Below, in pieces: positions 3,160-57,546 of a DNA stretch of 64,000 nt. The position numbers and the translations under genes are program-made. The notes beneath the pieces were generated by a model. The model worked only from the letters and a program-made list of their open reading frames with translations, searched no databases and had not been told where the DNA came from. This DNA comes from Octopus vulgaris (Eukaryota): positions 79,298,001 through 79,362,000 of the forward strand of contig OX597816.1 in NCBI GenBank assembly GCA_951406725.2, written 5' to 3'. Every line of letters starts with the position of its first letter. Position 1 is the stretch's first letter.

Positions 3160-6100
3160 GTAAGTATAGATATTATACGTACAATACTTTTGTATTCAAT
3201 AATGACTCATGCAAGATTACATATTTCTTATTTAGTGAGCATTAGCATTGTTTGTTCATTTATACAAAAATATATACATACATATATAATACTTACATAT
3301 ACACACACACACACGCGCGCGCACACACACATATATAATTATTAAGGAATAATACTTCCGAGTACACAGGAAAAAGATATTCAAATTAGATGTATTAAAA
3401 TGAACATCTCACAATGTTTAATTCGTATATATAAAAGTAATTTTTGAGACAGAACCACCTTCAACTCAATCAACACTGAAAGATTTTATACCCGACCACT
3501 CCATAAAATGTTAAAAATTAAATCTTATACTAACTATATCTATTCTGAATCCTGTATTTTCCGTTTATAAGACTACACGTGTTTCATGAAAGTACGTCGG
3601 TATTGATTAGATACAAGGTATCTAGTTTCAATACTTACTCAGGTCGACATACTTCCAATCTTCAGGTCTGGATTCCTCAACATATTTCTCTATCCCTAAC
3701 TCTTATATACTTCCATGATACTCTATATCTTCAATATAATCTTACTTAACATGTGCAAATGAATAGAAATACAAATAATAAATAAAAATAACTGAATATC
3801 AAAAATTTAAGGAGTAAAAATTTAAGGAGTAAAAATTTAAGGAATATAAACTCAAGGAATAAACATTTAAAGAAAAAAATACGTGTAAAAATTACGATTA
3901 AAGGTTCCGAATAACGAATAAAGAATTGCGAATAAACAAATACGAAATAAAAATGAAATAATAATGAAACAACGATGAAATAATAATGTATTAAAAATAA
4001 GGACGAAAATAAACAAATGTTAACTTATCTTTTCTTTTCTCGGTGAAAATTAGACAAAGCTACATCTTGCAAATCAGGTAAAATCTGCGTTTGATAATAC
4101 CTATAGATAGGAGGTACCACAAATAAATGTCGGAAAGTCCTACTGGTGTTTCTATTCCTTTATATAGTACTGTCAGGGGAACAAGCCCCTTTTATCGTTT
4201 TTTAATTTATTCAATCTATGTATTATTGCAAACAACCAATCTAGAAAGTTACTTCTTTAGACTCTCAATTCGAATATTTTCCATCCCGTGTGCCTCCACT
4301 TGTTCTGTTTAGTCCATCATAGAAAGAATGGACTAAACAGAACAGGAAGAGACACACAAGACAGAAGAGTTGGTGAAGAGACCACAGCTATGTGACAAAA
4401 GACTTTCAGACAATAGACATAAGATAAAATAAAAACTATAACAAATGAGTGAAGAATGAATATATCGTAGGTGTGTTTATTTGGCAAAAGAAAGAATAAA
4501 AATGACAGTCCAGAAATATAACAATATATACACACATATATACGTATGATATTCACACACACACCCACCCACACACATGCGCGTGCACGCATGCACACAT
4601 ATGACTTATTCTTTTCTTCTTTCAAAGATGATGGAGATATTGCCTTGGATTTCAGTGGCTTAGCTAAAATTTATTTTCGTGGTAAATGGACAGCTATTTG
4701 TGCGTCAAAAGGTTTTACAATTCAATCACGAGTGTTGTGTCGGAGTTTTGGTCAAAAGTAAGTAATACAATATTTCTTTACATATAGAATATGATGATAG
4801 ATACATTTATCTAGTATTGAAAGATAATAACTGTAATTAAGCAGTCCCTTCAGGGTTAATATCATGATATTCAGTGTGCTAGACCAGTCATACATCATAT
4901 ACCTTTTCACCCACCCCTACAATGTGTGTCTTCTTCTCCTTGTCCTACAATGAACTCCCACTATCCCATCTCCATCAATGAGCTCTCTCTTCTTCCTGCC
5001 CTAAATTAAGTGCTACTTCTCCCAGTCCTATTATGTATGCCCCTTCCCTCAGCATACATTGTGTGCCTTCTTTAACAATTTTCTCTCTAAATTCCTTTGG
5101 CCACCACCCTCTTCTTCTTATAGGGAAAAATGAGTTGAAAGTTATATTCAACTTCTACACAAAAATATCTATGGCTTTATAATCAAGTATATCACAGCAT
5201 AAATCTGTTATCTGCCAAATTTTAAATTCTTCATGCCAAATCCTTTGACACGTTGTAAGAGTACATAACGCTCTCGCCTTCCCAGCCCTACACCAACCCT
5301 GTTCTACACCCTCTTCTGTTCAAGAAGTGAAACTACCTGCACCCTTTAATACACTATATTTTTTAGTGTACTCATAGCCAACTCTCATCCCACTAATAGC
5401 ACCACCAAGCATGGTTTCTGCAACTCTAACAAGCCACTCATCTACTCATAATTTCCTTAGAGATCACCATGACAAAAGCTTTCCCCAGGTCAATGAAAGC
5501 CAAGTACAATGGTTTACTTTTGGCCACTTCTCCTGTGACTACCTCACTAGGAAGATGGCATCTATGGTACTCTTCCCAGGCACAAAACCAAACCGTACCT
5601 CATCTAGTTTAATTTTATTCCTAATCAATTGAGCTATACCTCTTTCTGTAACTTTCATGACCTAGTCTGGCAGTTTGATACTTCTGTAGTTGTTTCTATC
5701 AAAGGCAACATCTTTACCCTTGTAGCAGCTATGATGCTATTATGCTAGTCTTTGGGAATGACACCTTCCTGGGAAACCTGATTAACTATAGGAGTGGTTA
5801 GGCCAAATCCTACTCTGCCAGATATTTTAAGCATCTCAGCAGTGATTCCTGATGGTCCAGAAACTTATCTAGTCTCTATATTTTTAATTGCTTTATGTAT
5901 CATATTACTGTTAGCTCTGATGGTTGGTCCCTCAGTTGGTTCTATTTCAAAGACTCATTTTCCCATGCATTCTCCATATTTGGCAAGGTTTCATAGTGCT
6001 ATTCCCATACATCTTTCTTCTCTGAATCACTAAATGCAACCATAGCATTATCCATTTGCACATATTTCTCACCAGCAACATTTCTAATCTATCTGATCCA

Positions 6101-7875
6101 CTGTTTAGCAATTCAGAACAGCTCACTGGGTGGTTTCATGTGAAATCATATATCCTCTAAACAGAAGGTATGATTAAACAACCATTATACATGGTTGACT
6201 GGAAAATATAGCCAAGGTTCTTTTGACCTGAAGATGAAATATTAACATGTTGCTAGGCTTTCAACTAGAATTAAAATCTGAGGAAAATATGCAGAGGTGA
6301 GAAATGTATAAGGGAAATGCAAAGATTTTCAGAGTTAAATCCTTGGTAAACTTGAACAATTACATGGAAGTCAAAAATATTGCAACTTAAAATGATCTCT
6401 GCTCACAGATATGGGATTGAGGGAGAAGAAAAGAAAGTGAGAAAAAAGAAATGAAAGGGAGAGGGCTATATAGAGACATGAAGAGAAGTAGCAATTTGGG
6501 AAAATACAGGCAAAAGGAGATTACGGAATAGATTTAAAAATGAAAAACTATAAAAGTAGGAAGTTTAGAAATGTTATGAGGAAATAAAACCTATGAAAGG
6601 AAAATTCCAATCAGCTATGTGTATATATATATAAACACACACACACATGCAGGAAAAGTTCATAGTCCGACTAAGAAGGAGTAATGCTAGAGCTATGAAA
6701 TCTTGCAATTTCAACATCCTTATTAATAACTGCATTGTAAATAAACTGACACCTGACTGTTCAAAGAAAACTTCAAAAACAGCTAGCAGCAACTTCTCTT
6801 GAAAATGAATAAAATTTGGCATTGTGGTGTTATCAAGTACCAGCAAAAAAAAAAGGGTTTAGCCCTTAAAAAGCATTCATGCTGACATGGTTGGTACATT
6901 AGGGGATGATGCTCCAGCTTTATCAACAGTGCATAAATGGGTAGCTGGATTTAAGAGGAGAAATATCACCTGAAGTCTAAATGTCCTGCAGCTGCCACCA
7001 CTGCTAAAAAAATTGATTGTGTTCACCATATGCTGATGGATGATAGGTAACTGACTATAAATCAAATGGCCAATGCTATTAACATATCCTGTGAGAGAGT
7101 TGAGAATATTCTGCATAATGACTTTAGCATGATGAAGGTTTCTGCTTTGTAGGTGTCACATATTCTGACACCTGATCAAAAGTGCACCAGACTGAGCACT
7201 TCACAGGAAAACCTGACATTGTTTGACACAAATCCAGCTGATTTCCTTGAATGTTTCCTAAGCCAGGATGTATGTTGGATCTGTCACTTTGAGCCAGAGA
7301 CAAAGGGACAATCTATGCATTGGAAACACCACTCCTCATCTATTCCAAAGAAGGCCAAGATTATTTCAACTGCAGGAACGTTAATGGGGTCAGGTTTTTT
7401 GGGGGGATAAAAAAGGCATTGTGTTTATTGACTGTCTTCAAAAGGGACATGTCATCAATGGAGAGTACTATGTCAGCTTGTTGAAGCAGCTACAAAAGGC
7501 TATCAAGGGCAAATGCCCAAGAAAATTAACGAAAGGGGTCTTATTTCATCAGGACAATGCTCCAGCACACAAGTCCTTGCATTCAATGGCTTTGAACTGG
7601 TTGATCATTCTCCTTATTCTCCTGATTTGGTCTCATTTGTTCCCAACATAAAAAAACATTCAACTGGGAACCAATATCACAGTAATGATGATATCATATC
7701 TGCTGTTGATGACTTTTGGGGCAACAGGATGAAAGCTTCTTCACAAAGGGTTCTAACACTGCAGTGTTTGGATGATAAGGGACATTATGTTAAAAAATAA
7801 ACTGCATTTGGTGACATTTCATGAGATTATCTTGATCAGTCTATGAACATTTCAGCCAATCTCTGAGTGTGTACT

Positions 7876-7906
<31 letters not shown>

Positions 7907-9879
7907 GCACACGCATGCACGCGTGCATGAACATGTGTGTTAGTCTATACACACACACATGTCCAATCCATACAACCTTGGAAAAAGAGATATTAAATTA
8001 AATGCGGATAATATATAAAAATATGTAGATATGCATATGTATATACTTATGTACACACACAGGCATAGGAGTGGCTGTGTGGTAAGTAGCTTGCCTACCA
8101 ATCACATGGTTCCGGGTTCAGTCCCACTGCGTGGCACCTTGGGCAAGTGTCTTCTACTATAGCCTCGGGCCGACCAAAGCCATGTGAGTGGATTAGGCAG
8201 ATGGAAACTGAAGGAAGCCTGTCGTATATATGTATATATATATGTATGTATGTATGTGTGTGTATATATTTGTGTCTGTGTTTGTCCCTCAACATCGCTT
8301 GACAACCGATGCTGGTGTGTTTACATCCCCGTAACTTAGCAGTTCGGCAATAGAGACCGATAGAATAAGTACTAGGCTTACAAAGAATAAGTCCTGGGGT
8401 CGATTTGCTCGACTAAAAAGGTGGTGCTCCAGCATAGCTACAGTCAAATGACTGAAACAAGTAAAAGAGTAAAGAGTAAAAGAGAGATGTGTGCACTTAC
8501 TCACAGATGCATGCACAGCACACTAAGAGAATCATGCACGCACACAAACACTCACAATATACAGGGTGCTCAGGCAAAAATTTGACGAAATTTGCATAAA
8601 AGGAAGAGAAAACATAATATCACATCCAAAAATAAAAATATTTTAAAACAAAATATCGATTAGATTATGGCTGGGAGATAGCAGTTTACTTAAAGTATCC
8701 ACACTTAGCATCCACTGTGGCCTCAAGATGGCTTTGAAACCTGATGTATGCATTCCTCACTATGTCCCTGGGAAGGTTTTTGAATACCTCCTTGATCTTG
8801 GACTCCAGCTTGACTTAGGCAGAGCATTTGTGTTTTTCTCAACTTTGCTCTATGCATAGTATTCTGTGGAATCACAATTGGAAGAATTAGGAGGTTAGAC
8901 ACTGAGTGTTGTGAAGTTGCAGAAATTCTCTGACAACAACTTCTGATACTTTCAAAAGGTATGACAAGGTGCCAAATCCTGCTGCCACACATATGACCTT
9001 CCAGCAGCAATCTTTTACTATCAGGGTTTGACCATCATCTCCAGCACTTTCATGAAGCCATTTGAATTGAGCCTTAGTGCCTGTCCAAAGATGTAAAGTG
9101 GTATGATGTCACCCTCACTAGAGACACACCCAAAGACCATTATAGTTTGGGGGAACTTGGTTTTCATGATGTCTATGTTACATCTTACAATGTTCACAGA
9201 ACATAGAGAAGCAGTCATGATGTTGGTATTTTGATATCCAGTGTGAATCATTATAATACAGATAACTCTATTCCAATATTTTGATGGCTTCTAGTCCTCC
9301 ATGTCAGCTAGCTTTTTCTCAATTCCAACTTTAATATTTGTGTTCTTCAATGGCATTGACTGTTCACCAATAAATCAAGCTGTTTCTAATAAAAGGAGAC
9401 ATAAAAATCATCAAATTTAGCCAGATCACCTTGTATACACATATAGGTGTATGTGATGAGGGAGGTGTATTACACAGCAGTCAAGTTCCTCTGAAATTTA
9501 GAAAATTGATACATGAATTAACTTACTAATTCAGAAACAAAAAGCAATTTTTTGATCGAATCTTTGCAAGATAAAAGACAACTTGTGACTAAGCAAAAAC
9601 AACAATAATAATAACTATTTTCACATTTGAAAATAGCATTATGATGTTTGGTAATGCATCATCATGTAGACTGCAACAAAGAAATGCATCCAAACATTAT
9701 ACTAATATGTAGGAGTGGCTGTGTGGTAAGTAGCTTGCTTATGAATCACATGGTTTTGGGTTCAGACCCGCTGCATGGCACCTTGGGCAAGTGTCTTCTT
9801 CTATAGCCTCGGGCCAGCCAAAGCCATGTGAGTGGATTTGGTAGACAGAAATGGAAAGAAGCCCATCATATATATGTAC

Positions 9880-9924
<45 letters not shown>

Positions 9925-12900
9925 TGTGTGTGTATGCATGTGTGTGTGTGCATGTATGTTTGCGTGTCTGTGTTTGTCCCCCAACATCACTTGGCAACAG
10001 ATGTTGGTGTTTTTATGTTACCGTAACTTAGCGGTTTGGCAAAAGACACCTATAGAATAAGTACTAGGCTTACAAAGAATAAGTTCTGGGGTCAATTTGC
10101 TCAACGAAAGGCGGTGCTCCATCATGGCTGCAGTCAAATGACTGAAACAAGTAAAAGAGTAAAAAGTAAAGGAGAGAGTAAAACTGAAATATATTCTTTT
10201 TGTATTCAATTTTCAGATTTTCAACTTATTTATTAGATAGTTCAAATTTACCAATCTCAGTCGGTGATTTAACATGCAGAGGTGATGAAAACTCACTAGC
10301 AGCTTGCAATTATAATTTTGGTTCAACTAAGAGTTGTTCATATAGCAAGCTTTATGTTCGGTGCCAGGAAGACTGTAAGTACTAATATTTACTTCACTAA
10401 GATATCAATGTGTGTTATCTATCAAATAATCCTTATATTCTTTGCAAATCACAAGAAATTGTGTGGCTGATATTCCTTGGTAGTAAGCAGGGTACTGTTC
10501 TATTACAGTTAGCATTTATTACTTGAGTAATTGAATTAAACACAGTAAGCCAACATACTCAATGATGTTTATTCTTGCATTTGTGAGTTAGACCTATTTC
10601 CAATAATTATTTTCTGTTATAAAGCATGGTCAGATGAGAAGGGAGGCAGTTGTGGTTTTTGCATGCCAATACAGACTGGTGAGACTGATATGGCCAATGC
10701 TCATCCTGAAAATCAGTAGGTCAGTAATATAGGTGGAAAGAAATCAAGGAGTATGAATGCTTGTGACAAAATGAGCTCTGCTGAAGGAACCCAAGAACCA
10801 GGTAGTGTATTAGACTTGTCTCTCTTAACCATGGCACAGTACTGAGAGGATTTGTTAGATATATACTACTGAAAAACCATAGTGATTACTATTTTGGGAA
10901 ATATCTGGTTATTGGCTTTAAGACCAAAATCAAATTCATCACCTTATTGATATGTTAATACATGTTAATGATGGAAATAATAATATATCATGTAATTAAG
11001 GAAAAATTGTATTTATTGATTGCTAGTTATGTGTTTAGATTATATAATTATTGTTACTGTTTTATCTATTAATAATTCCAATGAGATTAACAAGGACAAT
11101 TTAATATCTTATCAGTATATGCTGGATTTTAGTGCCAGTATAATACAGTTGTTAATTCCTTTGAGCACCTCCTTCAGTTAACTAACAAAACCATTTACTA
11201 GATGAATTAGATACTTTCATGTATTTGTTCATAAAATTCATTGAAACTACATTATTTTCAATTTCATGTTCCAGCAACTAAGGCATTTTGCTCATTTGAT
11301 AACAACATTTGTGGAATGGTTAGTGAAGGTACAGCAGATTATGAATGGCAACGTGTTCAACCCTATACATACAAACTGCCGGGACAATCAATACCCAAAA
11401 GTGATCACACGACTGAAAGTTATAAAGGTAATTAATCTCAGTTTCTTTGATCATCATCATCATCCTCATTTAATGTCTGTTGTTCATGCTGGCATGGGTT
11501 GGACTGTTTGACCAGGGCTGGTAAGCTGGAAAACTACACCAGACTCCAATCTGATTTGGCCTGGTTTTCTAAAGCTGGACACCCTTCCTAACACCAACCA
11601 CTCTGAAAGCATAATGGGTGCTTTTATGTGCCACCAACACGGGTACCATTTGCGTGACACCCATATTTGCCATGACTGCAATTTTACTCAGTTTCATGGG
11701 TCTTCTCAAGATGACATAATGCCAAAGGTCTCAGTCATTGCTTCTGTGAGGTCCAACACTCAAAAGGAAATCAGCCACTTTGCCTCCATGATAAAACAAT
11801 CATAGAGTAAGAAAAGAATCTGTATTTTGTGCTGTTGTTCTGCTTTTCTTTGAATCTTTAACACCAAATTTTAATTAGTATCTAATGATCTTTGATGATT
11901 GAACCTGAAACCTTTATTTTACTGCTTGGGCCCATTGTTCTTGCAACTGTTCTTTTGCTCTGAAGGTTAAATGTGTAGTTATCTTAAATACTTAAGAATT
12001 AGGCTTAATAAATACAGACATATTGGATAATGAATTTTTACCTACTTGTTGAGGCAAGTGAAATCAAAATCGAATCAAATTCAATGGCTGGCACCCGTGC
12101 CAGTGGAGAGCTAAGAGCACCATCTGAGCATGATCATTGCCAGAGCAGCTGACTGGCTTCCATGCCGGTGGCATGTAAAAAGCACCATTCAAGCGTGATC
12201 GTTACCAGCGTCATCTTACTGGTATTTGTGCTGGTGGCATATGAAAAAACATTTTAGCGAGGTTGTTGCCAGTGCTGCTGGACTGGCTCCTGAGCAGGTG
12301 GCATGTAAAAAACACCATTTGAGCATGGCCGTTGCCAGTACCGCCAGACTGGCCCTCATGCAGGTGGCATATAAAAGTACCCACTACACTCTTGGAGTGC
12401 TTGGCGTTAGGAAGGGCATCCAGCTGTAGAAACTCTGCCAGATCAGATTGGAGCCTGGTGCAGCCACCTGGTTCACCAGTCCTCAGTCAAATCGTCCAAC
12501 CCATGCTAGCATGGAAATCGGACGTTAAACGATGATGATGATGCTCTGAAAAAAAAAACACAAAAAGAAAAAAGCAGATGGGTTGTTCATGGCTACAAAT
12601 GCCTTTGATCATAGATCTACTAGATTAGAGTTGATATGAGACTAAACAACAATAAAAAAATGACTCATTAAAAAGGATGACAGATAGCAGAAATATTGTT
12701 GATGAGCTCAATAGAAACAAACTCAAACATAAACTTTTCTCTTTTGTATAATAATTTTGTATGAAGAAGAGGGAGGTCTGTGACTGAAGCTTTCCAGAAC
12801 CCCTAGTAGTAGTAGTAGTAGTAGTAGTAGTAGAAGTGGTGGTGACAGGAGGAGGAGGAGGATAGTAGAACTATTAACAACCCATTTTTATTACTGATTA

Positions 12901-13894
12901 ATAATTAAATTTCAAAGATATTTAACAATAAATTATTAGTTTATATTTTTGAAACCCAGTTATTATTCACCTATTTTATATGTAGGACACAAATTAAATT
13001 AAAATCATATGAAGTTTGTTGATAATATTATACTAAACTTTAAGGCAGTGAGCTGACAAAATTGTCATATCAGGCAAAATGCTTAGAGCCATTTTGTCCA
13101 TCTTTATGTTCTGAGTTCAAATTTCACCAAGGTTGAATTTGCCTTTCATCTTTTAGGGGTTGATAAAATAAGTGCCTGCTGAGCATGGGGTGGTGGGATT
13201 GGTGATGTAATTGAGTAATCATCTTACCCACTTCTCTGAAATAGTTGGCCTTGTGCCAAAGTTTGAAACCGGCATTATACTAAGATCTGCCACATTATAT
13301 TCTCAAAAAGTAATTTTTTTTTATTATATCATTTTTACATGTTATTGAATGCTGTATATTTGCTTTTTCAGGAAAATATATGCTTGCTTCTGCAACTGGT
13401 TTCCCTGGACAAAAAACAACTTTGAGAACAAAACCCACCAGTGGAAATGTTGGGAGTATCAGTTTCTACTATCACATGTTTGGAAGTGACATGGGAAGCC
13501 TAAATGTCTATATTCAAAGTCATAATTCTAGCAAAAAATCTATTGGATCTATATCAGGCAATCAAGGCATTGGATGGAAATATCTGTGTCTTCCCGTGAA
13601 TGAGGGATATAGGTAAGAAGATTTTGCTTTCAATAACTTTTACTGGTTCATGATTGATTTTTCTGGCAATGTTGATGCCAAAGTTAGTTTGCGCAGCTTA
13701 TTTGCTTTGACAGACCAACAGAAGCCACATAATAATGATGCAACTTCATACCTCTCACCTTGTATACAATAAAAATATAACACACTTCTAATCTCCCATG
13801 AAATAATGATTTAACAATTCACCTCTGATCTCTTTTTATAATGATGATACAAAAAACACCTTTAACCTACCTTGTTATATAAATAATAATAATA

Positions 13895-13951
<57 letters not shown>

Positions 13952-14166
13952 TGCCAGGACTTTTGAGTGTATATAACATACAAAAAAATAGCACTGCTAA
14001 GCACTGCACACATCCTCCATAAATCACTTTCAGTACAGTGAAAATAAAAGCACCACAACAAACCCAAGGCACACAGAGCTGTGCTTAGTAGTGCAGTGAA
14101 AGCACATGATAAAAATAAGACTACTGAATAACAATAATGATAATAATGATGATGATGATGATAATG

Positions 14167-14216
<50 letters not shown>

Positions 14217-14706
14217 CATAATAATAACAATAATAATAATAATAATTTTGAACACACAAACCATCATCTTAAAAACAAAATAAATAAAACCCTTTAATAT
14301 CTACGACTACTGTGTGAATACTTATCCTTTTCTTTCTCCCTGAGTATTCAAAAACATAAACATCATCCTCCTTTTTATTCTAAGAACACTACCATTTTTC
14401 TCTGTTCGGTCATACAAAAGAACATATTTAGTTAACCTTAGGAATTTACTATCTACAACTTGTTTTCTTTTCTTTTTGACTCTCCCTCAGTATTCAAAAA
14501 TATAAACATTCTTTTCATTGCAAAAATCCTACTGTATTCTCCAACTGGGCAGAAAAAACAAACATCTCAATAAAACTTAAAAACTTCAATATATTACCCA
14601 AATACGAAAACACACCTTTATTGCAACAACATAATTGAATTCAGAAATTCAAAAACTCAACGACATCAGTGTATATGTGTGTGTGTGTGTGTACATACGT
14701 GTGTGG

Positions 14707-14784
<78 letters not shown>

Positions 14785-17700: not shown

Positions 17701-18241
17701 CAGGGCAAAAAATTGGTACAACCACAAACCTGAAGTCATCATCAAAAATGAAAATGCAAAGATCCTATGGGATTTTATGATTCAGTGCAACCATGAGATA
17801 GAGAATAGGAAACCGGACATAGTCTTAATTGAGAAAGAAAACAAACTATCCTGGATCATAGATATAGCATGCCCAGTTGACAACAAGGTATGTGATAAGG
17901 AAGAAAGAAAAGTGGAGAGATATGACAGGTTAGCTTGGGAGGTTAAGCAGTTGAGGTCAAGGAAAAAAGTAGGAGTATTACCAGTAATTGTTGGAGCCCT
18001 GGGAACAGTGAGAAAAAATCTCGAGAAGTATTTGGAACAAATAGAGGCTGCAATAAAGGTGGAGCACTTGCAGAAAACAGCACTGCTTGGAACCACTCGA
18101 ATAGTCTGGAAGATGCTCAAAAAATAAGAGGTGTTACCTTAGTTCACTGGTAGTGAACAGCTGACACCATAGTACATGTCCAGCGTTAGAAGCTGTGCAA
18201 AGACAATAATAATAATGACAATGATAATAATAATAATGATG

Positions 18242-18291
<50 letters not shown>

Positions 18292-19378
18292 CTGCAAGAA
18301 GTGCAAAAGATTGTCTTAACTGGTACACCTGTAAGAAGTGCAAAAGATTGTCTTAACTGGTACATCACACGTATTGAGAAGAGCATTGTCGATGTGAGAA
18401 CTGTTGCTGCTCATGTATTTTAATTTAACTTAAAAAAAAAAAAAAAATGAACGAACTACTGAGTTTGGTTTAATGGCCTACCAATGTATACTATGAGTTT
18501 CTTTGCCCTAGGAGTCGGGAAGACACTCGGCAAGAAATGGAAGCAAATTTGAAAGAAGAAAAAAAAAAGCAATAATAATAATAATAATAATAATAGTAAT
18601 AACAACAATAATAATAATGATGATGCCTTGATGCAGTACCAGGCTCTGGCTTTCAACGCTTCTGATCATAACTGATTGAAAGTGTTATCATGTGCATGTT
18701 TTGTCTTGATATAAAAGATGGGCTACAGTAAATATTCAAATATTGTGCTCAATATTGACTTTAACCAGGAGAGCATGTCCCTTTGTGGCTGACAATATGT
18801 GCATTTTTGATCACGGGCAGAAGTAGTAGGGGAGCATCATAGTCATGTGTTGAGAGTAATTGTTTGGGGTTTGAATAATTCGCCTCTGGAAACATGTATG
18901 CTTTGTTTAACAGACTTCGACAGCCCTCATTCAGTGACTCTTTTAGTGGGATGGGCTACTTGACTCCTGAGAGAATTCTAACTGGGCCCCAACTGCAAAG
19001 TCATGCACAATTTATCTTGATATGAGATCACCATGTCATGTACATATGGTTGTGATGCATGTGCCTAGAGTACTCTTATCAGATGTGTATATTGAGCTTC
19101 GTATATTTTACCCCAGTATCACTTTGATGGTATGCTCTGCTCTCTCACTCAATAATAATATTAATTTCATATTTTACCACAAGAGCAGCAATTTTGTGGT
19201 TGAACGTGTCAATTACAGTGACCCCAGTGTTCAGCTAGTACTTAATTTATTAACCCCGAAAGAATGAAAGGTAAAGTCAACCTCAGCAGAATTTGAACTG
19301 AGAATGTAGAAATGGGTGAAATATCATTAAGCCTTTTATCCAGCATGCATACAATTCTGCCAGCTTGTTGCCTTAATA

Positions 19379-19436
<58 letters not shown>

Positions 19437-19539
19437 CTTAAGGAAAGTATTATCTGTCTGAGGCCCTCGTGACTTGACAGATAACTAAAGACTCCAGTGC
19501 ATTTTTACCTACACTGTATGATGAAGGAATAATAATGAT

Positions 19540-19585
<46 letters not shown>

Positions 19586-19829: not shown

Positions 19830-19885
<56 letters not shown>

Positions 19886-20739: not shown

Positions 20740-20814
<75 letters not shown>

Positions 20815-38316: not shown

Positions 38317-38390
<74 letters not shown>

Positions 38391-44300: not shown

Positions 44301-47300
44301 TTCGTGTCAGAGAAAGCATTGGAAAAATTGAAATTAAAATTGAAAAAGATGTACCCTGATGTGTTTTCAAAAGAACTCGGTATGTGTAAAAAACTTTATT
44401 TTAAACCACATACCAATATTAATGTATTTTGCTTATTTTCTTTATTTTACAGACACAAACAAATACTTATACATTTATTCAAGAACAAATACTGAAAATG
44501 CAAACTTTCAAATACAGTCACCTCAAGCAGATGTGAAGGAAAATTCTAGTGTCACCTTCAAATACCGAATGAGAGGAAATATGAAAGAGTTTGCACTAAT
44601 TACTTATGACTCTTATTCACGGAATGAATTGTGGTCTTCAAATTTTAATGATATTAAAAAATTCACCACAGCATGTGTAGATTTCCCAGTTTCAACAAAT
44701 TTCGGGCTGATCTTTCAGATGACAGCAAATGTTAATTCCAGAGGGAACACATATGGATACCTGGATGACATAGAAGTCCACAATGAAACATGCAAATGTA
44801 AGATTTAAAATATCTTCATTTTAAATTGAATTTCTTTTCAATTTTATTCAAATTATTTTTCCTGATATTTTTAAATCCATTTTCCCATTCTTGCATTGTC
44901 AGGGTTGTTTTGTTGCAGCAATTATTTTTACAATTCTGGATTCTCATCTTTGTTTGAAAACAGAGTGGCATCTGTTGTGAGACAATTAGAGTTATGTGTC
45001 CTGATCAGGAGTACAACACAATGGCTGAAGTGAGGTTTAAATATATAACCTTATGATGATCATCATCATTTAATATCCACTTTCTTTGCTAGCATAGGTT
45101 ACATGGTTTGGCTGGAACTGGTAAACAGGAGAGCTGCACCAGGTTCCAGTCTGATTTGGCATGGTTTCTACAGCTGGATGCCCTTCCTAATGCCAACCAC
45201 TCCAAGAGTGTAATGGGTGCCTTTTACATGACACCAGTAACATCCATGAGTACAAATTCATGGGTGCCATTTACAGGATGCTGGCAATGGTCATGATTAT
45301 GGCTTCACTTGACTTAACGAATCTTCTCAAGCACAGCATATCACCAATGTCTTGGTCACTTGACATCATCTCTGTGAGGCCCAACATTCAAGGATCATAC
45401 TACTAGCAACATTCATGGATACAATTTGACGGGTGCCGTTTACATGATGCCAGCAACATCCACAACAATGATTTCACTTGGCTTGATGAGTTTTCTCAAG
45501 CAAAGTATATCACCAAGGTCTCTGTCACCAGTCATCACCTCCATGAGGCCCAGCACACAGAGATCATGCTTTACCACCTTGTTCCATGTCTTCCTGAGTC
45601 TACCTCTTCCACAGTTAGCGATTGGCACTTCTTTACACAGCTGTTCTTCTCCATATGCATCATATGACCATGCCAGTGCATTTGTCTCTCTTGCATGCTA
45701 CATCTGATGCCTTTAATGCCCAGTTTTTCTCTCGAGACACTTATGCTTTGTCATTCATGCACACTGGTATTGCACATCCAGCAAAGCATACTAGCTTCAT
45801 TTCTTTCAAGCCTTCACATGCCCTCTGCAGTCACAGCTCATATTTCACTGCCTTATAGCATGGCAGTTCATGCACAGGCAATACACAGTCTGCCTTTCAC
45901 TCTGAAGGAGAGGGCCTTTGTTACCAACAGAGGTAGAAGCTCTGTGAACTTTGCCCAGGTTATTCTTATTCTAGCAACTACACTCTCAGATCATCCACTT
46001 TCACTGCTGGCTTGGTCACCTAGATAATGAAAACTATCAACTTCTAGGTATCTCCCAAGCATTTGATGACGTCTATTTTCTTTATGTGTCTAATGTTTAT
46101 TGTACTTGTGCATCTGCCACACACAAAATCTATTTTCCTTCCTAACCTTCCTTTGATATTACTGCACCTCTTATGTGTCCAAAGCTTTCACCAGGTACAT
46201 TTTATAGAGTTTCTATCTACATCTTTTCTACATGTTGAGCAGGGTTTTTGACTTGTTTGCTTTCTTACTCCCTAAGACTTTGGTTTTTGCTAAATCAACT
46301 CTTAGGCCCTTCAATTCTAGACCTTGCTTTCACACCTGGAATTTCTTCTCTAGTTCTGGTAATGAATCAGCAATAAGAACAAGGTCATCAGCATAGAGGA
46401 GCTCCCAGGAGTGCCAGTCTTAAATTCCTCTGTTATTGCCTGGAGGAATATGGATATAGCTGAGGACTGATCCTTGGTGAACTCCTAGTTGTATCTTGAA
46501 TTCATTGCTATACTCATTGCTGACCCTCACCTTACTGACAACATTCCGGTGCATGGCTTGTACAACTCTCATCAATCACTCATCTATCCCTAGTTTCAGC
46601 ATTGCACTCAAGATAAGGGATCAGGGGACTCTGTTGAAGGCTTTTCCATGTCAGCAAAGCCAAGTACAGAGGTGTCTAATAATCTAACATAATTACTGTG
46701 ACTTGTAAATCATCTAATATGTATTAAGCAATACTAATCTATATAGATTTACAATATGAGCTTTGAGCTTTTGTATTATCAATACATTGGCAGAAAGTAA
46801 ATTGATTCAATACTACAGTCACATTACAAATTCATAAATTCGAAAAAATATTTCTTCTGAAATTATGCTTGTAAAGTCTTTAATCTGGCTTGTTGTAAGC
46901 AAAATATTGATGTTATCTTCATAACATTATTCAGTAAGTGAGCAAAGAAGTTTACATATTTATTCAACCTGATCAGTGTCATAAACATATCTTCTTCAAC
47001 AGATTCTACAAAAGCAATTCAGTTGTCTTTTTATTCACTTTGACTGTTGCTCAGAAAATTTTGAATGTACATGTTAATCCATAATGAAACTCGAATGCAA
47101 ACCTAGATGCCATTGAAGTCCATATTGAAACATACAAATGTAATATTCAAAGTTTCTTCAGGTGCAGGTGTTAAACAATGATGATGATGATATATGTATG
47201 TAAATATATATATAAATGTACGTAAGTATATATCATCCATCATCATCATCATTTAACGTCTGCTTTCCATGCTAGCATGGGTTGGACGATTTGACTGAGG

Positions 47301-47895
47301 GCTGGTGAACCAGGCTTCAATCTTCTTCTGGCAAAGTTTCTACAGCTGGATGCCTTTCCTAATGCCAGCCACTCTGAGAGTGTAGTGGGTGCTTTTACGT
47401 GCCACCAGCATGGGGCCAGTCAAGCAGTACTGGCAACGACCTCGCTTGAATCTTTTACACATGCCACTGGCACAGGTGCCAGTAAGGCAATGCTGGTAAC
47501 ATCATGCTCGAATGGTGTCTTTTATGTGCCACCGGCATGGAGGCCAGATAACTGCTCTGGCAACGATCACGCTTGGATGATGCCTTTAACACCCTACTAG
47601 CATGGGGCTAGAGTGCCAGTAAGGCAACGCTGGTAACGATCACACTCGAATGGTGCCTTTTATGTGCCACTGGCATGGAAGCCAGTTAGCTGCACTGTGA
47701 ACGATTACATTCGTATGCTGCTCTTTGCACCCCACTAGCACGGGTGCCAGTCATCGAATTTGATTTTGATTTTGATATGTATATATATAAATATATATAC
47801 ATACATATGTATGTATATATATATATGTGTGTATATGTATGTATGTATATATATGTATGCATATGTATGTAAATATATATGCATTTATGTATATG

Positions 47896-47935
<40 letters not shown>

Positions 47936-47941
47936 TTTATA

Positions 47942-48011
<70 letters not shown>

Positions 48012-48667
48012 TTATATACATAAATGTATAATGGTGTCTGTCTGACTATGTGTTAATGATTTTTGGCACATAGGTAGATCACATGCTCTTCGAAAACTTG
48101 ATAATGCTCAGTTAGCATCGATTTTTGTAAGCTCAATCGGGCATTTGAATAGAAATTCCTGTAAAAATTTTATTTTTCTTGCAGCTTTTGCATTTTTGTC
48201 CGATTTTGATAGCAAATGGTCATGTAGATTCTATTTTATGACATAACCTTAACACTTTTCTTTGGATTTGGCTGAGATTGGACACGCTGATCAATTTTGT
48301 ACAGAGGGTAGCATTAAGGGGAGAGAAATAAACCAACATCACTCTCAATGGGTCGAGGTACACCCAAAAGTTTGACTGAAATTTCTGATGGTCCAGTATG
48401 TAGGAGTATGTCAAAAGTGTTTACTGGGAAAAATCCCGGCCGAACCAGATATAACATCTTAATGGGTAATAGTTGACATGGGGAATGTACAAGATTTGAA
48501 TACAAGGTCAAAGGTGGACTTAACTTTAACATGGAATACACAAGCAATGCTGGGTCTAACAGCTAGTATGTATGTATGTATGTATGTATGTATGTATGTA
48601 TGTATGTATGTATGTATGTATGTATGTATGTATGTATGTATGTATGTATGTATGCATATATATGTAA

Positions 48668-48710
<43 letters not shown>

Positions 48711-51547
48711 TATATATATAAGTATATATGTAAGTATATATATATATAAGTATATATATAAGTATATATGTATAAGTATATATGTATAAGAATATATATG
48801 TATAAGTATATATATGTATAAGTATATATATGTATAAGTATATATATGTATAAGTATATATGTGTAAGTATATATGTATAAGTATATATACATATATATA
48901 TATAAATAAATATATATGCACATGTATATATATATATATTTACGTGTGCATGTTTTTGTGTCTGTGTTTGTCCCACCACCACTTGATAACCGGTGTTCAT
49001 GTGTTTTGCATCCCCATAACTTAGCTGTTTGGCAAAAGAGATTGATAGAATAAGTACCAAGTTTAAAATATAAGTACTGGAGCTGATTCATTCAACTAAA
49101 AAAAAAATTCAAGGTTGTGCCCCAGTCTAATGACTGAAAGAAGTATAACCACTGTGGGTTATGAGTTTTTGATAAGTTAACTATGGCTGGTTTGTCTTGA
49201 AGCAGCTGCATGATGGTTATACATTAACTGGTCTAGTCTGTGTGCCTGGTGTGATTGTAGGTAAACTCTTGATAAGAAGAACCAGGTAAATTTAATGGAA
49301 CTGTTCTTTATTACGACCATTATAAAAATACATGGCAAATGTCTTACGCATTGATAATTAACTGGTTTGGTAATTCATGGCCTGGTTCTGTGAGCTGAGC
49401 AGTATAGTTCTGTGCTCTGGGCAGTGTAGTTCTGTATTCAGAGCAACATAGTTCTGTGTTCTGGGCAGCATTGTTCACAGGAAGATGTCCCTTTGGTTTG
49501 CAATCTCCTCTCTATCTCCTGCTGTAGCATGAGGGAGCATTTTTTATATAATGGCTGATAGACAGGAGGGGAAATTTTCTGTGTTGGGAAAAATATCTGT
49601 TGCTCAAACAGTTTTAGAACTAGTTTAGTTGCTTAAATTTATATATGTTGCAAGCTTGAATTTATATGTATTGTGAGCAGAGACAAACTACTACCATCTC
49701 TAGCTGATGAGATGTCCTGTACTGAAGGTAGGTAGAAAATAACATGAAGCCAGCTGGTCTACTGATCCCATCACTAGAAGGTGGTAGGGGTTCGCTCCCC
49801 TGCTCACAATATATTGGATGCAAGTGTGCATCATTAACCAGCTACATGAAATGTCCTCTCAGAGTAATCAATAGAACAGCTATGTTGAAGTGGCAACAAA
49901 CATTACTTGTCAGTACAGCTACTACATTCGTCTCTAACAGAGATTTTAGAACTAGCTTATTTTACATGACTTACTCAGAAAAAATAATGACTGAACCTAG
50001 TATGAGTTTTGACAAATAAGAATTCCATTTGTCTGATTGATAAAGCTACCACCTCATTGTCTTTTAGTATAAATTGTTGAACATTCCTTAAACTTTTGTA
50101 CCTTTAACACAATCCTCCAGTAGACTCTGTATAATATTGTCTGGTAAGACTGCATCCTAGTACAATTATCCATTAGAGAGCTTTCCACATATGTTTCCAT
50201 CTACAAGTTTCATTCAGAATGGTTGAATCAATCCAAAGATTTGGAGCAGAAACTTTCTCTACATGCCAAGAAAGTAGAATAGAATTTAAAATCTTTTGTT
50301 AGAGAAGTGAACTACTTAGCCATTCAGCTATGCACTCTCATACTTAAGCATATATCAATTTTGTCCAAACCAAGAGTCCATAGTTTCAATTTTATCATCA
50401 GATCATTGAATTTTAAATTATTCTACTAAAAGAGTTTTTAGGAATATATTTATTCTAATACTAAGTAATCATACTTAATCTTTTACATCACCTACCAAAC
50501 TTCTAAAAATATTTAAAATGGTTGAAAATTACAGAAGAAATTAGATAGAAAGCTTATATAGTATAATGCATGAGTTATTTTTTAATAATATGAATGCATA
50601 ATTTTAAACAAAGAATAATGATAAGTAATATGATGTTGAAGAATAAAAAAATCCATTCAATATTTTGTCTTTGATAAATTCTAAACGTGAAATAAAATCT
50701 TTAAAATGAAATTTCAGTCGTACACAATATTAAAAACTATCATGCAAAGTTCCAAAGATATAGGGTATAAGGGCAGGGAATGACATTGATATTAACCAAT
50801 AGATTCTTGAGACCTTTTGAAGTTCTTTACAATTGCTGTAAATTTTTTACAATTTACAAGTTTTATATTTTATATGATTGATTCTTTTTTAATATGCAAA
50901 TTTATATTTTTATTTACAGTCATATCAAAAACTGTAATGTGGGTTAAGGTCTTCAAGGGAAATGTAATACTATCAATTTAATATTTTCATTTCTTGATTT
51001 GAACTTATTAAGCTTAAAATATTGAATAAATTTACCATTGTTATTGCACATTCTTACACTTTCATTGTCCAAATCTTATATTTCAAGTAAACTATTTGAT
51101 GATTTAAATAAACTATATGATTTTACATTTTGTCTTGTCCTTTGTAAATTTACTAATGTTATTGATCATGTGTTTCAACAGTGGGTCTTACATACCATTT
51201 TTGCAAATTCGAAGAAGTACATCTGTGTAATTTCCATGTTGAATGTCCAGAGAATACCAGATATAACTGGAGCCGAAGATCTTCTTCAGATTACCGTGAT
51301 ATTCCACGTCATCGTGGCAACCCATGTAAGTCAGATATTATAATGCATTATTATATATTCTGTAAACTATTATCAAATAGTTGTTATTAAGGTTAAGATA
51401 CCTCCAGTAAAATTTCCTCTTTAAAAAATCCATTATATTTTGACATTTTACTAAATTTGAGATATTTATAGTGCTTCTCCTACTCCTCCAACTGCTGCTG
51501 CAACTACTACTACTACTACTTACAGTTGCAACTACAACAGCAGAAAC

Positions 51548-51590
<43 letters not shown>

Positions 51591-53665
51591 AATGCATTCA
51601 GGACACATGGCCTAGTGGTTAGGGTGTTGCATTCATGATCATGAGACCATAGTTTCAGTTCCTAGACTGGATGGTGCATTGTATTCTTGAGCAAAACACT
51701 TCATCTCACATTGCTCTGTGAACACTTCGACACCAGATATGTTGTACACTATGCATCTGTTCAGCAAATGTCGATTGAATGGAGGGAGGGAGCTTATGTA
51801 CAGCACAAGCATTTGATTACTATAAACAATTCATTTGTGCAGGACATTCAGCAAAAACTGAACACATATACATCATCTTCCACAGGAGAGTCCATCATAC
51901 GTTAACATTCACAATCAAAATAAGAGAAGGAAGAGGAGGAAATAATGCTGTCATTTGTTCTTATAGTGTTCCTTATCAACTACTTTTTTGGCAATAAAAG
52001 AAACTAGTAATGAACATGTCATTGTTTTGTCCTTTAATTCCCATTTTCTTGCTTTTCTTTCAGACTATTACATGTATGTTGATTCTATAAATGGCAAACC
52101 TGAAGACGTGACACATCTTTCTTTTCCAAATGTTGAACCCCCAACAGGCCATAGTTTATACTTTGATTATTATCTCCAACAAGGCTCTGGCAAACTTCAG
52201 GTATGGTCAAATAGTTTTTCTCTTTAAATCATCACCATATTCACAGAGAAAAATTTTTTCTGGCAAGTGTTGGACAGTGTGACCAGGGCTAGCAATCTGG
52301 AAGGCTGCACTGGACTCCAGTCTGATTTGGCATGGTTTCTATGGCTTGATGCCCTTCCTAATGCCAACCACTCTAATAGTGTAATGGGTGCTTTTATCTG
52401 CTACCAGCACAGGTGCTATTTGAGCGACACCAGTATCTGACATGACTATGATTTTACTTGATGAGTCTTCTTCTCAAGCATGGCATGATGTCAAAGGTCT
52501 CAGTCATTCATCATTGCCTCCATGAGGTCCAGCACTTGAGAGGTGTTTTACATGTGCCACTGGCATTAGCCGCCCTGCCTCTGTGATGCCCAATGCTTGA
52601 ATGCTTTTTATGTGCCATCGGCATGGGTACCAGTTATGTGACACCAGCATTGGCCACAACCACAATTTCACTTGGCTTGATGGGTCTTCTTGTGCACAGC
52701 ATATCACCAAAGTTCTAGGTCACAAGTCACTGCCTCTGTAAGGTCCAAAGTTCAAAAATCATGTTTTACCATCTCATTCCATGTCTTCCTGGATCTGCCT
52801 CTACCACAGGTTCCCTCCACTGTCAGAAATTGGTACTTCTTTACATAGCTGTCCTCATCCATACACATCACATGACCATACCAGCAGAGTCGTCTCTCTT
52901 GCATACCACATCTGATGCCTCTTATGGTCAACTTTTCTCTCAAGATGCTTATACTCTGTTGTACATGCACATTGACATTGCACATCAAGCAAAGCATTTT
53001 GGCTTCATTTCTTTCAAGCCTACACATGTTCTTGGCTGTCACAGCCCATATTTTGCTGCCATGTAGCATAGCTGTTAACATACATGCATCATACAATCTG
53101 CCCTTCACTCTGAGGGAGAGGAACTTTGTTGTTACTGAGGTAGAAGTTCTATGAACTTTGCCTAGCCAATTCTTATTCTCAATGCTATGCTCTCAGAGCA
53201 CCACCTCCACTACTAACTTGATCACCCAGATAATGGAAGCTATCTACTACTAGCTTACCCAGGTGGCAGTTGATAGCATCTATTTTCTGTACATTTTCAG
53301 TGTTTATTGTATCTGTGCATCTTCCACACACAAATGCTATTTTCGCTGTTAACCTTCCTCTGATATTGTTGCACCTCTAATGTGCCCATAGTTAGGTTAA
53401 CTCTAACACCTTTCGATTCTAGATATTGCTTTCATACCTGAAACTTCTTCTCTAGTTCTGTTAGTGATATATAAAGAACACACCCATACTAGTACCATGT
53501 AAAAAGCATCCAGTATATTCCGTAAAGTGGATGATGTTAGGAAGGGCATCCAGCTATAGAAACCATGCCAAAATAGATGAATGGAGTCTGCTTCAGCCCT
53601 CTGGCTTGCCAGCTTCTGTCAAAACCGTCCAATCTATGCCAGCATGGAAAATGAATGTTAAATGA

Positions 53666-53733
<68 letters not shown>

Positions 53734-55092
53734 ATACATACATACATACACATGCATAAAGAATTAGGAAAAGGAAAATTATCTGGTTAACCTCACCTCT
53801 CCCCATTTAACCTAAATGTTTCTAGTAACATAGCCAGGGGCTTTATGTCATTAAAGAAGAAACATTTCCCTAGAGGCCATACATAAGTATTACAAATTCT
53901 TCAATCCCTATAATGTCAAGGTGAGATGTAACACACAGCATCAAGTGGACTATTAACTGGTGCCACCATATTCACCCTGTGTCCCTAATTGCCAGCTCTG
54001 CCTCTGTAAAAAACTGCATATCTTTTGCCAACCTGCAGTATTCATCAACAAGAAATATGATCTATTCTATTGCTCTCACCAGACTTAGCCCTTCCAGTAA
54101 ATTTCAAACTACTGGCTGCTGACAACTTAGATATACCTCCTCAGTACAAGCTCCTTCTCTGCACTACCTGCACCGAGATCACCATCACCAACCAAACCCG
54201 TGAGCAGGACTGAAATCATCAATTCCTAATGCTTTTCCATGCCTGTCTACTTGCATACTCTCACCTCTTGTACATAACCATATGAGTTAATATGCATGCA
54301 CATATACAACTTCACACCATATGCATGCACATGAATATATGTACAATAGTGTACATACACACATATACATACATGTGTGCATGTGCTCATTCATGTGTGT
54401 ACTCATGCATACATGTCTGCATGTGCTCGTTCATGTGTGTACTTATGCACACTTGTGTATGCATGCAATATGCTCTTGTGTGTGTGCACTTGGGGGTAGA
54501 TACATGCAGGCATGTATATGTGTGCATGTATTTATATATATATGTGTGTGTGTATATGCATGTTTGCACATGTGGACATGTATGTGTGTGCGCACATGCA
54601 TGTGTGCATGAATGCATACATGTGTGTGTGTGTGTGTGCATAGATGTGAAGATGTACACCTATGTACATGCGCATACACTTGCATTAATACAGGCGCACT
54701 CACACAAAAGTATAAGCACATGTGACTGTACACCTATGCATATGCACATACACTTACATAAATGCAGCCACTCACACACATATATATAAGCACATACACA
54801 CATATATACGTATATACTTGCACATCTACTGCCCCTTCCTACTTTCTTTTCACCCCACCATCTGTGTGACCGATTTCCTGTCCATCAAGTAATTGTTATT
54901 GCTGAAATAGCAGCATCAAACAGTGATACCATGTGATCTTTTTCGATCAGTTGCAAGCTAATAGCCAGGATTAAACAGTAATTCTCTCCCATCAACGTCT
55001 TATTCTAATTCCAATGGCTGAAGGCTAGCAAGACTAGCATCATGCTTAAAACTTAAAGTACCAGGGAATTTGAATCAAACTATTTGATCCAC

Positions 55093-55185
<93 letters not shown>

Positions 55186-57546
55186 TAAATTCAAGTAGAG
55201 CAATTCAAACTCTTTGGCGAGTCCAAAAAGAAATATTTCTAATAAATATTCATCATATCAAAATGATAGCCTTCTAAAGCAAGCAATTAAAATATGAAGA
55301 TAACAAGTAAAAAGTTCATTATAGGCATGTATAAGATAAAATCTTATATAAAACATTACAAACTATTATAAAAATGGAGAAGAGATGTTAAAAGTTCAAA
55401 TTAGAATTTAATATCCACATATGACCATTTCAAAAGATAATACAAATATGTAAAAAAAAAAATTAATTATAATAATAATAATTAAAACAGTTATGTATTA
55501 CCATTCTCATTAGTGTAAAAAATTAAAGGAAATTATAAAAAAAGGTATTACCAAAAAAATTAGAAGAATAAACAAAGAGGCTATATCGAACAAGCTAACC
55601 GGATATTTGCAAATAAATCTAGAAGGAAAAACAAAGAGGCTGTGTCAGGCAAGCTGACCAGATATTTGCAAATAACTTGTAAAAAGGGAAAAAGGAAGAG
55701 AAACATGGATATATTTAAATACATCCATTGGCCAGATTAGTTTATAGTTTATTGCACAGATAGACTCAAAAATATATTAACCTGTCCCTCCAGTCAGCAT
55801 GTCTGACATAGCCTCTTTGTTTTTCCTTCTAGATTTTTTTAAGTAATACCTGTTTTGATGTTTTCCTTTAATTTTCTTTTACACTGACGAGAATGGTAAT
55901 ACGTAACTATTTTAATTATCATTATTGTAATTAATATTTACTCTCATATATTTGTATTGCTTTTGAAACGGTTGTGTGGATATTAAATTCTAATTTGAAC
56001 TTTTAATGTCTCTTCTTCATTTTTATAATTGTTTGTTTTTGTTTTATATATGATTTTATCTTATACATGCCTATAACGAATTTTTTACTTATATATATTA
56101 TATATGTATATATCAGCAGTGGTCCCCCAGCATGGGCATGGCCTTCAGGCTAAAACATTTTTAAGAATTTATATAGAAAAATATATATCAAAATAAGCAA
56201 CAAGAAAATCTTCGGTAATTTGGTATGATCGTTTCATGCTACATCATTTTATTAAATATTGTAAGTATTACAACAGTTTTAAAATGTTGAGCAATCATCA
56301 GCCATTTATAGAGGTTTTCCATTAATACATAATTTTCATATTAATTGATAACATTATAGAGAAGGTAGATATATAGACAAAGATGTCAATTTGAATTTTA
56401 AGAACATTAAGGTAGTAGAGTTTATCTTATGATTGAAGAATATTCTTTAAGTTATTATATGTATGATAACACCATACGAAATTCTGGTGCACCTAACTTA
56501 AGTACCATATTCATTTGAATCTAAATTTTGCTGAACTTATATATATACAGGGCGACCCAGAAGTTGCACACCACCCTATTTTTAAAAAAAATACACCCAT
56601 ATTGATTTCAAAAACACTTTATTGAAATTAATCATAACAAATGCTAAAATTGAGTACCCTTTACAATAAAACATGCTGAAAAAATATAATAAAATAAAAT
56701 GTTTTAATTATTTTAAATGAAAACTAGAATGGTGCACGACTTCTGGGACACCCTGTATATTAATGGTATGACAACAAAAGAATGAATGAGGCCTCAGTAT
56801 CATGTAAATAGAAGAATTTATCTGTAATATGTGATAATTATTCTGTTGCCATAATAAAACTCCGAGTTTTGGATGTCAGAGCAGAAATCTGCTCCAGCGT
56901 CTTGTCAGTTATCAAGGCATTTTTTGATTGCCTTGATAACTGACAAGATGCCGGAGAAAATTTCTGCCCTGACATTCAAAACTCGGTGTTTTATTATGGT
57001 AACCGAATAATTGTCACATATTATATTATATATATATATATGTATGTATAATAATAAAGGGTCAAATTAATTAATTAATAAGTTTACCAAGTAGTTTGGT
57101 ATGTTAAAAGAACCGTTATCAGTAAACTTATACATAAAATTTTATAATTATGAGAATAATTATAATTAGGGTTCAGCAAAAATTTGCTTCACCACATGCT
57201 GAAATTTAAAAATAACAATTAAAACAAACTATTTCACTACAATAAGAAAATCTCCCAGATAGCAATACTCAACAACCCACGCAGGTAAAGAGAAAAAACT
57301 AATGAATCCATCCAGCTTTGATTAACTGTGTACGCGTTTTGGAGTTAGAGAGGTGTGTAAAATGTAAAATCATATTTCACTCTATTTCAGCACAGTAATT
57401 CAAGATTTTAAATTTGAGAGAACTGCAAAAATTGAACATACCTTATCTGACCATGTATATACTCATAATTATAAAATTTTATATATTTATGTATGAATGC
57501 ATATATATGTTATATATATGTGTGTGTGTGTGTCTGCATGCATGCA

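Follow-up and report, generated by a model that had tools for sequence, protein, structure and literature searches.

What are the hammerhead-like motifs that recur within a single gene of Octopus vulgaris, and does their orientation reflect selection by the host? The sequence considered here (hereafter the window) is a stretch of 64,000 nucleotides (nt) of contig OX597816.1 (G000:C3:79298001-79362000) in a 2.8-Gb assembly of 227 contigs. A preliminary description, made from the letters of the window, had pointed to seven loci of this kind and attributed them to a diverse population of ribozyme-bearing, non-autonomous elements. Our analysis indicates, with a probability of roughly 0.85, that the loci represent decayed insertions, each from a different one of seven unrelated families of Penelope-like elements (PLEs), here called F1 to F7, with hammerhead-bearing terminal repeats, four of them linked to open reading frames (ORFs) of the Hydra type and two of them ORF-less.

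Hammerhead families and their Penelope-like partners

The motifs are unrelated in sequence, as first described: BLAST among the seven families found no similarity save one 21-nt AT-rich match. First-look genomic counts gave 414 candidates for F1, 1262 for F2, 2556 for F3, 2404 for F4, 171 for F5, 903 for F6, and 534 for F7, and 40 candidates were scored per family. Family membership and intact cores outside the window were observed directly, the core together with stem I being intact in 20/32 aligned copies of F1, 7/20 of F2, 15/25 of F3, 14/28 of F4, 8/24 of F5, 11/33 of F6, and 11/29 of F7. Family clustering, one of the checks proposed beforehand, recovered an intact core in the common form of all seven families (CUGAnGA, GAAA, and the UH triplet), along with stem I, helix II, and a palindrome, all at a constant position within the end of the element; the cores are spaced 31-78 nt apart across F1-F7, and stem I measures 3-9 bp. 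Compensatory pairs were found in stem I of F7 (C-G/U-A in a ratio of 7:7, with a covariation score reached by 4/500 shuffles) and of F4 (A-U/G-C, 14:5), and stem I of F1 and F3 offers little variation in which covariation could be seen.

All the motifs named in the preliminary description were located in the window. The architecture claimed for them holds in part: among ten window copies the core is intact only at 3570-3669 on the minus strand (F1; fold z=-3.4), and the arms at 37945-38305 (F7) keep the 3' half of the motif (GAAAC-loop-GUA-stem I) and lost the CUGAnGA half at the inversion. Compared with their families, the window copies are damaged mostly by CpG transitions. A single nested 2.3-kb cluster (55.1-57.5 kb) contains four of the seven loci, which are not independent. 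A strict descriptor matched once in the window (3665, minus strand) and in none of the eight dinucleotide shuffles that had been suggested as a control, and across 264 kb it matched twice vs. no match in five of five shuffles. With at most one core mismatch the window gave 2 matches vs. 0-1 in shuffles, and with at most two mismatches 15 vs. 1-7. None of the 87 matches (E<=1) that an Rfam scan of the window returned belonged to a hammerhead family, and four of the six window copies that were folded did no better than shuffles. That the motifs are chance matches in AT-rich repeats is a reading of negligible probability: these two results and the frequency with which degenerate descriptors match shuffles (up to 7 per 64 kb at two mismatches) would suit it, but it is refuted by the family alignments, in which full core, helices, and palindrome occupy a fixed element-end position in every family and are accompanied by compensatory changes. 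Elsewhere in the 264-kb region, further hammerhead-like motifs of other families lie at window coordinates -45931, -44760, -17850, 143100, 153644, and 154725.

Helix III was predicted to be stable as a self-duplex (-5.8 to -10.7 kcal/mol) and unstable as a monomer hairpin (+1.3 to +6.0 kcal/mol) in 8/8 motifs, the F5 palindrome being imperfect, and in 7/8 cofolding tests it paired between molecules. These predictions suggest that the type I hammerheads likely cleave element RNA as dimers. Dimeric PLE hammerheads were reportedly described by Lunse et al. in 2017.

The copies share a consistent element architecture that was observed directly, with fixed 3' ends, ragged 5' ends owing to variable truncation, and inverted arms. 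At the 3' end, (TA)4+ was found in 77/154 family copies vs. ~12 expected, and the adjoining (TA)n tracts reported for most loci thus recur across the families; an upstream inverted copy of the element's own 3' part is present in 64/167 loci, some of which overlap. The family alignments and TA ends bear out the earlier view of diverse ribozyme-bearing Penelope-like families that favour TA tracts. In addition, all seven families have two preferred 3' ends ~75-220 nt apart, and in F8, F11, F2, and F3 the main body tends to end at the short end, with the inverted arm bearing the longer tail.

Four families (F1, F2, F3, and F6) appear to be 3' ends or pseudo-long terminal repeats (pseudo-LTRs) of autonomous Hydra-type PLEs, judging from the ORFs linked to their copies. 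An ORF with reverse transcriptase (RT) and GIY-YIG endonuclease lies directly upstream of F2 in L203 (170 bp) and L032, and its last residues are kept in six further loci out of 25. F3 lies ~1 kb downstream of one endonuclease (81-91% identical) in 4/25 loci and precedes an ORF start in L204, an endonuclease end lies ~1 kb upstream of F1 in 5/20 longer, upstream-selected copies, and F6 precedes an ORF in L140 and follows one in L145. RT and endonuclease together are linked to F2 (L203), F3 (L204), and F6 (L140), and the endonuclease only to F1. Motifs of Hydra-type proteins are distributed among these ORFs and that of F11, a further Hydra-type element: RWK in F6-linked and F11 ORFs, DKT in F11, CxCX5C in F1-, F2-, and F6-linked ORFs, and CxxC and CxH in F1-, F3-, and F6-linked ORFs, with no single F1-F7 copy having all of them. 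The proposed check on linkage to RT/GIY-YIG thus succeeded for these four families and found no such ORF for F4, F5, or F7, with an upstream walk from F5 across 16 loci encountering no Penelope ORF. Downstream of F2, L033/L202 have a Penelope ORF that belongs to another family and lies past the TA tract, and opposite-strand ORFs near F4 were also assigned to another family; neither was counted.

Young copies of F11 are arranged head to tail in L204 (3925-10000) and L207 (G000:C12:43653900-43661200); two of them share 99.6% identity and have open frames of ~726 aa, and a hammerhead whose helix II is very short precedes the ORF by ~130 nt. F11 in these loci is a candidate active element, and 1601 homologues of its ORF were found, almost all unnamed. 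The Penelope-like endonuclease remnant noticed at about 30 kb on the minus strand was confirmed (tblastn to Penelope proteins, E 2e-7; 7452 genomic candidates), although it represents an eighth family, unrelated in DNA to all seven and ruled out as the partner of F1-F7. Its relatives show a relaxed hammerhead pattern after the ORF in 9/30 loci.

By contrast with the ORF-linked families, for which the label non-autonomous is not supported, F4 and F7 fit the description non-autonomous or retrozyme-like. They form head-to-tail units, with a directly observed periodicity of 574-589 nt in F4 and 454-485 nt in F7, without Penelope protein match, with a GC content of 30-35%, a longest ATG ORF of 31-52 aa, and a hammerhead in each repeat. 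Such ORF-less tandem units were not found for F2, F3, and F6, and F1 includes tandem as well as ORF-linked copies. In L217, L221, and L223, F1 is repeated head to tail as dimers and one trimer, at 680-807 nt spacing and with one hammerhead per unit. In L190 (2256-2386), part of an F4 unit (82% over 147 nt) lies 450 nt past the end of a Penelope endonuclease, which may possibly be the F4 partner or merely share its TA target.

These features point to a mechanism in which the element endonuclease would nick (TA)n and RT would prime downstream of the ribozyme and copy back through it, with premature stops and strand switches giving rise to truncated and palindromic copies. F4 and F7 would borrow the protein in trans, and after insertion the motifs decay by CpG loss on either strand. 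Several points weigh against the assignment to Hydra-type, ribozyme-bearing families. The Pfam matches to RT and GIY-YIG fall under curated cut-offs, the full 726-aa ORF is without Pfam support for either domain, placement in the Hydra clade follows from motifs and not from a tree, and three of the families are those for which the search for a partner ORF was negative. The compensatory changes amount to one event each per subfamily, and the count of F7 pairs with change is not above shuffles (reached by 229/500). Cleavage is here predicted from sequence, and published PLE hammerheads cleave weakly in vitro; in the accessible part of a recent preprint, 8/9 predicted retrozyme dimers failed to cleave (bioRxiv 10.64898/2026.07.22.740005).

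Deletions at the predicted cut site of F2

F2 differs from the other families in a deletion hotspot at the ribozyme. In a first sample, deletions over helix III or the cut site were found in 21/33 copies, with 18 distinct deletions vs. 2.7 expected (0/20000 permutations), a frequency inflated by the query, which itself had a 17-nt deletion nearby. The hotspot was recovered with a query ending 100 nt upstream (8/30 loci that repeated earlier ones were left out): 7/22 new copies were scarred, and 6/9 distinct deletions fell in the zone vs. 1.0 expected (0/20000). A tail-only query gave 1/13 scarred copies, plus one shorter copy. Deletions in the same zone numbered 0/31 and 1/28 in F1, and 0/25, 0/28, 0/23 and 0/12, 0/32, 1/22 in the rest, the zeros being weaker where the query contained the zone and thereby selected against deletions (F1-top, F3, and F6). 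A contrast between short-end (16/21) and long-end (8/24) copies of F2 (p=0.007) came from the biased query, was not upheld by the unbiased sets, and was dropped.

The breakpoint map comprises 31 deletions, among which L044, L283, and L288 are doubtful assignments. In 18/31 cases the right breakpoint is no more than 2 nt from the predicted cut, six times exactly on it; six more fall at a microhomology 4 nt further, and 2/31 lie more than 2 nt to the left. Left breakpoints are mostly 6-30 nt upstream. Among the motifs tested, the monomer helix III of F2 is predicted to be the least unfavourable (+1.3 kcal/mol). We tentatively read these deletions as a genomic fossil of in vivo hammerhead cleavage, in which about a third of F2 copies would derive from pre-cut RNA that was imprecisely rejoined, a reading we hold at somewhat less than even odds. 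The RNA template would often be cut already, and RT or repair would rejoin the two sides imprecisely, leaving deletions that end at the cut site; in a variant, RT would jump across the cut (or the RNA would be trimmed and ligated), landing in the single-stranded core. Two observations count against cleavage as the source: the scar is found in F2 only, and the depth of deletion is greatest in the middle of the palindrome, which lies 6 nt upstream of the cut.

The position of that peak would also be expected if RT skipped the G+C-rich helix III, as a hairpin or intermolecular duplex, without any cleavage. The smallest deletions, which remove 5 nt of the 3' strand of the helix, and the retention in 8/31 scars of the one or two natural bases that immediately precede the cut point the same way. 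However, the self-duplexes of F1, F3, and F7 are equally stable and yet show 0-1 such deletions, and several junctions carry non-natural A/T filler that abuts exactly the first base past the cut; we regard skipping as unlikely. Of similar, rather low probability is an origin as repair scars of a sequence-specific DNA break or of the excision of a nested DNA transposon, in which the ribozyme would be irrelevant. The confinement to one family, the variable deletions with microhomology that resemble end-joining spectra, one replacement by foreign sequence, and a recurrent 15-nt deletion (5/24, and again in the replication set) would be in keeping with a DNA break, but the right breakpoints keep to the cut or fall past it instead of scattering about the middle of the palindrome, and the copies listed have no common inserted sequence at the site. 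We consider it unlikely that dead ribozymes were selected for, since comparable deletions of the 5' core box are not seen.

Insertions in the host gene and their orientation

The host gene lies on the plus strand, with SRCR and MAM exons recognized by Pfam and, beyond the window, LDLa- and trypsin-like exons downstream (recognized by motif only). GT-AG joins at 10374-11275 and 11425-13370 were seen in one run, and one contig also holds 4628-4757. Since the SRCR exon at 4628 opens at an acceptor that falls inside the domain, the copy at 3570, a short way upstream of this exon, probably lies in an intron. Features of the window are collected in Table 1.

Table 1. Hammerhead-bearing insertions, the endonuclease remnant, and host gene exons in the window
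Feature	Position	Strand	Description
F1 element	3300..4280	-	5'-truncated 3' end of Hydra-type Penelope-like element (putative)
F1 type I hammerhead	3570..3669	-	intact core, 73-nt branched helix II, self-complementary helix III, GUA triplet
Host gene exons	4628..58138	+	SRCR, at least 6 MAM domains (Pfam), spliced joins
Endonuclease C-terminal remnant, eighth Hydra-type family	29920..30231	-	own hammerhead end missing here
F2 element	34100..34916	-	3' end of Hydra-type element (putative); family with deletion hotspot at ribozyme
F2 hammerhead	34626..34690	-	broken: core substitutions and 17-nt helix II deletion
F7 inverted pair	37838..38311	.	each arm only hammerhead 3' half: 38100-38117 (-), 38134-38151 (+)
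F5 inverted pair	55118..56100	.	both hammerheads broken: 55416-55517 (-), 55880-55979 (+)
F3 truncated 3' end	56167..56547	-	hammerhead 56221-56304 (-), triplet decayed; inverted tail arm ~56460-56547
F6 inverted pair	56757..57050	.	hammerheads CpG-decayed: 56854-56912 (-), 56936-56994 (+)
F4 element	57040..57456	-	hammerhead 57325-57396 (-) broken by deletion and CpG decay

The preliminary description had noted that all four solitary copies are antisense to the gene and that sense motifs occur mutated and within hairpins, and had suggested that sense self-cleavage of the pre-mRNA is selected against. The orientation of the four copies stands (4 antisense:0 sense, p=0.125) and, as had been conceded, is too few to be significant alone; three of the four, however, have broken cores, mostly by CpG decay and one with a deletion, and the copies at 56221 and 57326 carry inverted arms, that of the latter being short. 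The selective explanation is not supported. Intact cores in the window number 1/7 antisense and 0/3 sense (Fisher p=1), and, when insertions are assigned by main body (the main body itself being inferred from F8 and F11), those in the host gene divide into 5 antisense and 4 sense (p=1). Solitary, intact, sense copies exist in introns: an F3 copy (L066) in an LDLa-LRR gene, flanked by LDLa and LRRNT exons, and an F1 copy (L014) in an intron of an XPG-family gene. The orientation in the gene is compatible with chance, and the claim of strand selection is not supported; a modest genome-wide strand bias may still exist.

Could host selection nonetheless purge intact sense hammerheads from introns unless an antisense arm masks them, and so produce the pattern in the window? 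All four arm-less or short-arm window copies are antisense, an arm covers the motif in each of the four insertions of the gene whose main body is sense (F5, F6, F7, and, past the window, F11), two intact sense copies nearby are both in inverted pairs, which fits masking, and solitary intronic copies number 7 antisense:2 sense (p=0.18), a tally in which the exons behind 3/7 antisense copies have weak Pfam support or none at all. Retrozymes are, moreover, depleted in Xenopus introns according to the accessible part of bioRxiv 10.64898/2026.07.22.740005. We regard such purging as distinctly improbable, as it is at odds with the solitary intact sense copies, with the even split of main bodies, and with cores that are broken equally often in antisense (6/7) and sense (3/3) orientation, and dimer-dependent motifs would be expected to be nearly silent when alone. 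Arm frequency is furthermore a family trait, high in F5-F7, with arms over the cut site rare in F1-F4, and the orientation pattern of the window is therefore confounded. The published signature of the Hydra clade comprises 3' ends fixed at (TA)n, variable truncation at the 5' end, and inverted arms, and the palindromes can therefore be understood without invoking selection. When the repeat loci were scanned automatically for exons, credible ones were too few for an orientation test.

Several neighbouring observations concern the same families. The intact sense F3 copy (L066:1500-1950) stops ~20 nt before the splice acceptor of the LDLa-LRR receptor gene. In the same host gene, 31 kb past the window, an F11 insertion with a sense main body (window coordinate 91717-95653) lies beside an LDLa exon; it has a 1.1-kb inverted arm, and both arms keep the motif of the young family copy with its very short helix II. 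A neighbouring gene, which we take to be sulfotransferase-like from its motifs, has an intact hammerhead in the sense arm of an insertion and a mutated one in the antisense arm. Assembled contigs of other F1 copies cover 3426-3781 and have no bearing on strand or RNA origin, and for 56170-57480 no RNA record was listed among sources limited to assembled contigs, which are blind to ends, strand, and level.

Other features of the window include a short TA-flanked element at 56546-56760, bounded by terminal inverted repeats and nested between F3 and F6, by its appearance a Tc1/mariner-like miniature inverted-repeat transposable element, a tRNA match above the Rfam threshold with a GAA anticodon (35024-35096, plus strand) directly past (TA)n beside F2, and a decayed non-LTR retrotransposon (15448-18127, plus strand) with a zf-RVT match at 17366-18124.

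Comparison with known systems

The elements are of a known kind, as Hydra-type Penelope hammerheads are already published. The many unrelated hammerhead families with long helix II, missed by Rfam in the window, constitute a resource, as does the young tandem copy with its open 726-aa frames, and the ORF-less derivatives fit the proposal that animal retrozymes arose from Penelope terminal repeats. The F2 scar carries more weight, given that the role of hammerheads in endonuclease-bearing Penelope elements is called unclear, without in vivo evidence, in the portions of the literature consulted. If the deletions stem from cleavage, genome sequence alone would suffice to test the question in other families and species. 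On that reading, Penelope hammerheads would serve as active sites of RNA processing during germline transposition, and scar frequency would read out the cleavage rate of a family. Among the entries listed in a literature search, none described deletions at the cleavage site or a strand test, and in the accessible part of PMC13282606 the words hammerhead and ribozyme do not occur.

As far as the available text of Craig et al. 2021 (PMC8557442) goes, the Hydra clade is defined by a C-terminal GIY-YIG-type endonuclease and the motifs RWK, DKT, CxCX5C, CxxC, and CxH, and it has (TA)n targets, hammerheads, and an octopus member, Hydra-1_Obim. Our families share with that clade the GIY-YIG domain, the motif set, the (TA)n target, a hammerhead at the 3' end, 5' truncation, partial tandems, inverted arms, and a tail confined to one end. 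They differ in number, with at least 12 distinct hammerhead-bearing families here vs. one octopus family listed there, in core spacing (31-78 nt in F1-F7 vs. 17-23 nt in four Hydra rows), in tail length (~75-220 nt vs. 30-40 bp), and in the F2 deletion hotspot, no counterpart of which is mentioned in that text.

PLE hammerheads, in the sections consulted of Cervera and de la Pena 2014 (PMC4209133), are solitary, highly variable, palindromic, and dimer-dependent, with opposite-strand pairs 100-700 bp apart; cleavage in vitro is weak, and the authors state that evidence for cleavage in vivo is lacking. The motifs described here are likewise of type I, with a short helix I, a palindromic helix III that needs a dimer, and an extra nucleotide before helix II, and they too form many unrelated families per genome, mostly solitary but with opposite-strand pairs. 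Helix II, however, is far longer here (branched in F1) than the 6-8 bp given there.

According to the accessible part of a preprint by Li, Clavereau and Pollet (bioRxiv 10.64898/2026.07.22.740005), retrozymes derive from PLE terminal repeats and are depleted in introns; a strand test does not appear in that part. F4 and F7 resemble the non-LTR retrozymes described there and in the consulted portion of Cervera and de la Pena 2020 (PMC7229834) in being ORF-less, low-GC, head-to-tail units with a type I hammerhead each. Unlike these, they occur mostly as one or two units, with PLE-style inverted arms and TA targets, their hammerheads are of the PLE type rather than canonical, with an atypically long helix II, and they are known from genomic copies alone. 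The four ORF-linked families stand further apart from retrozymes, as they appear to be the ends of autonomous elements.

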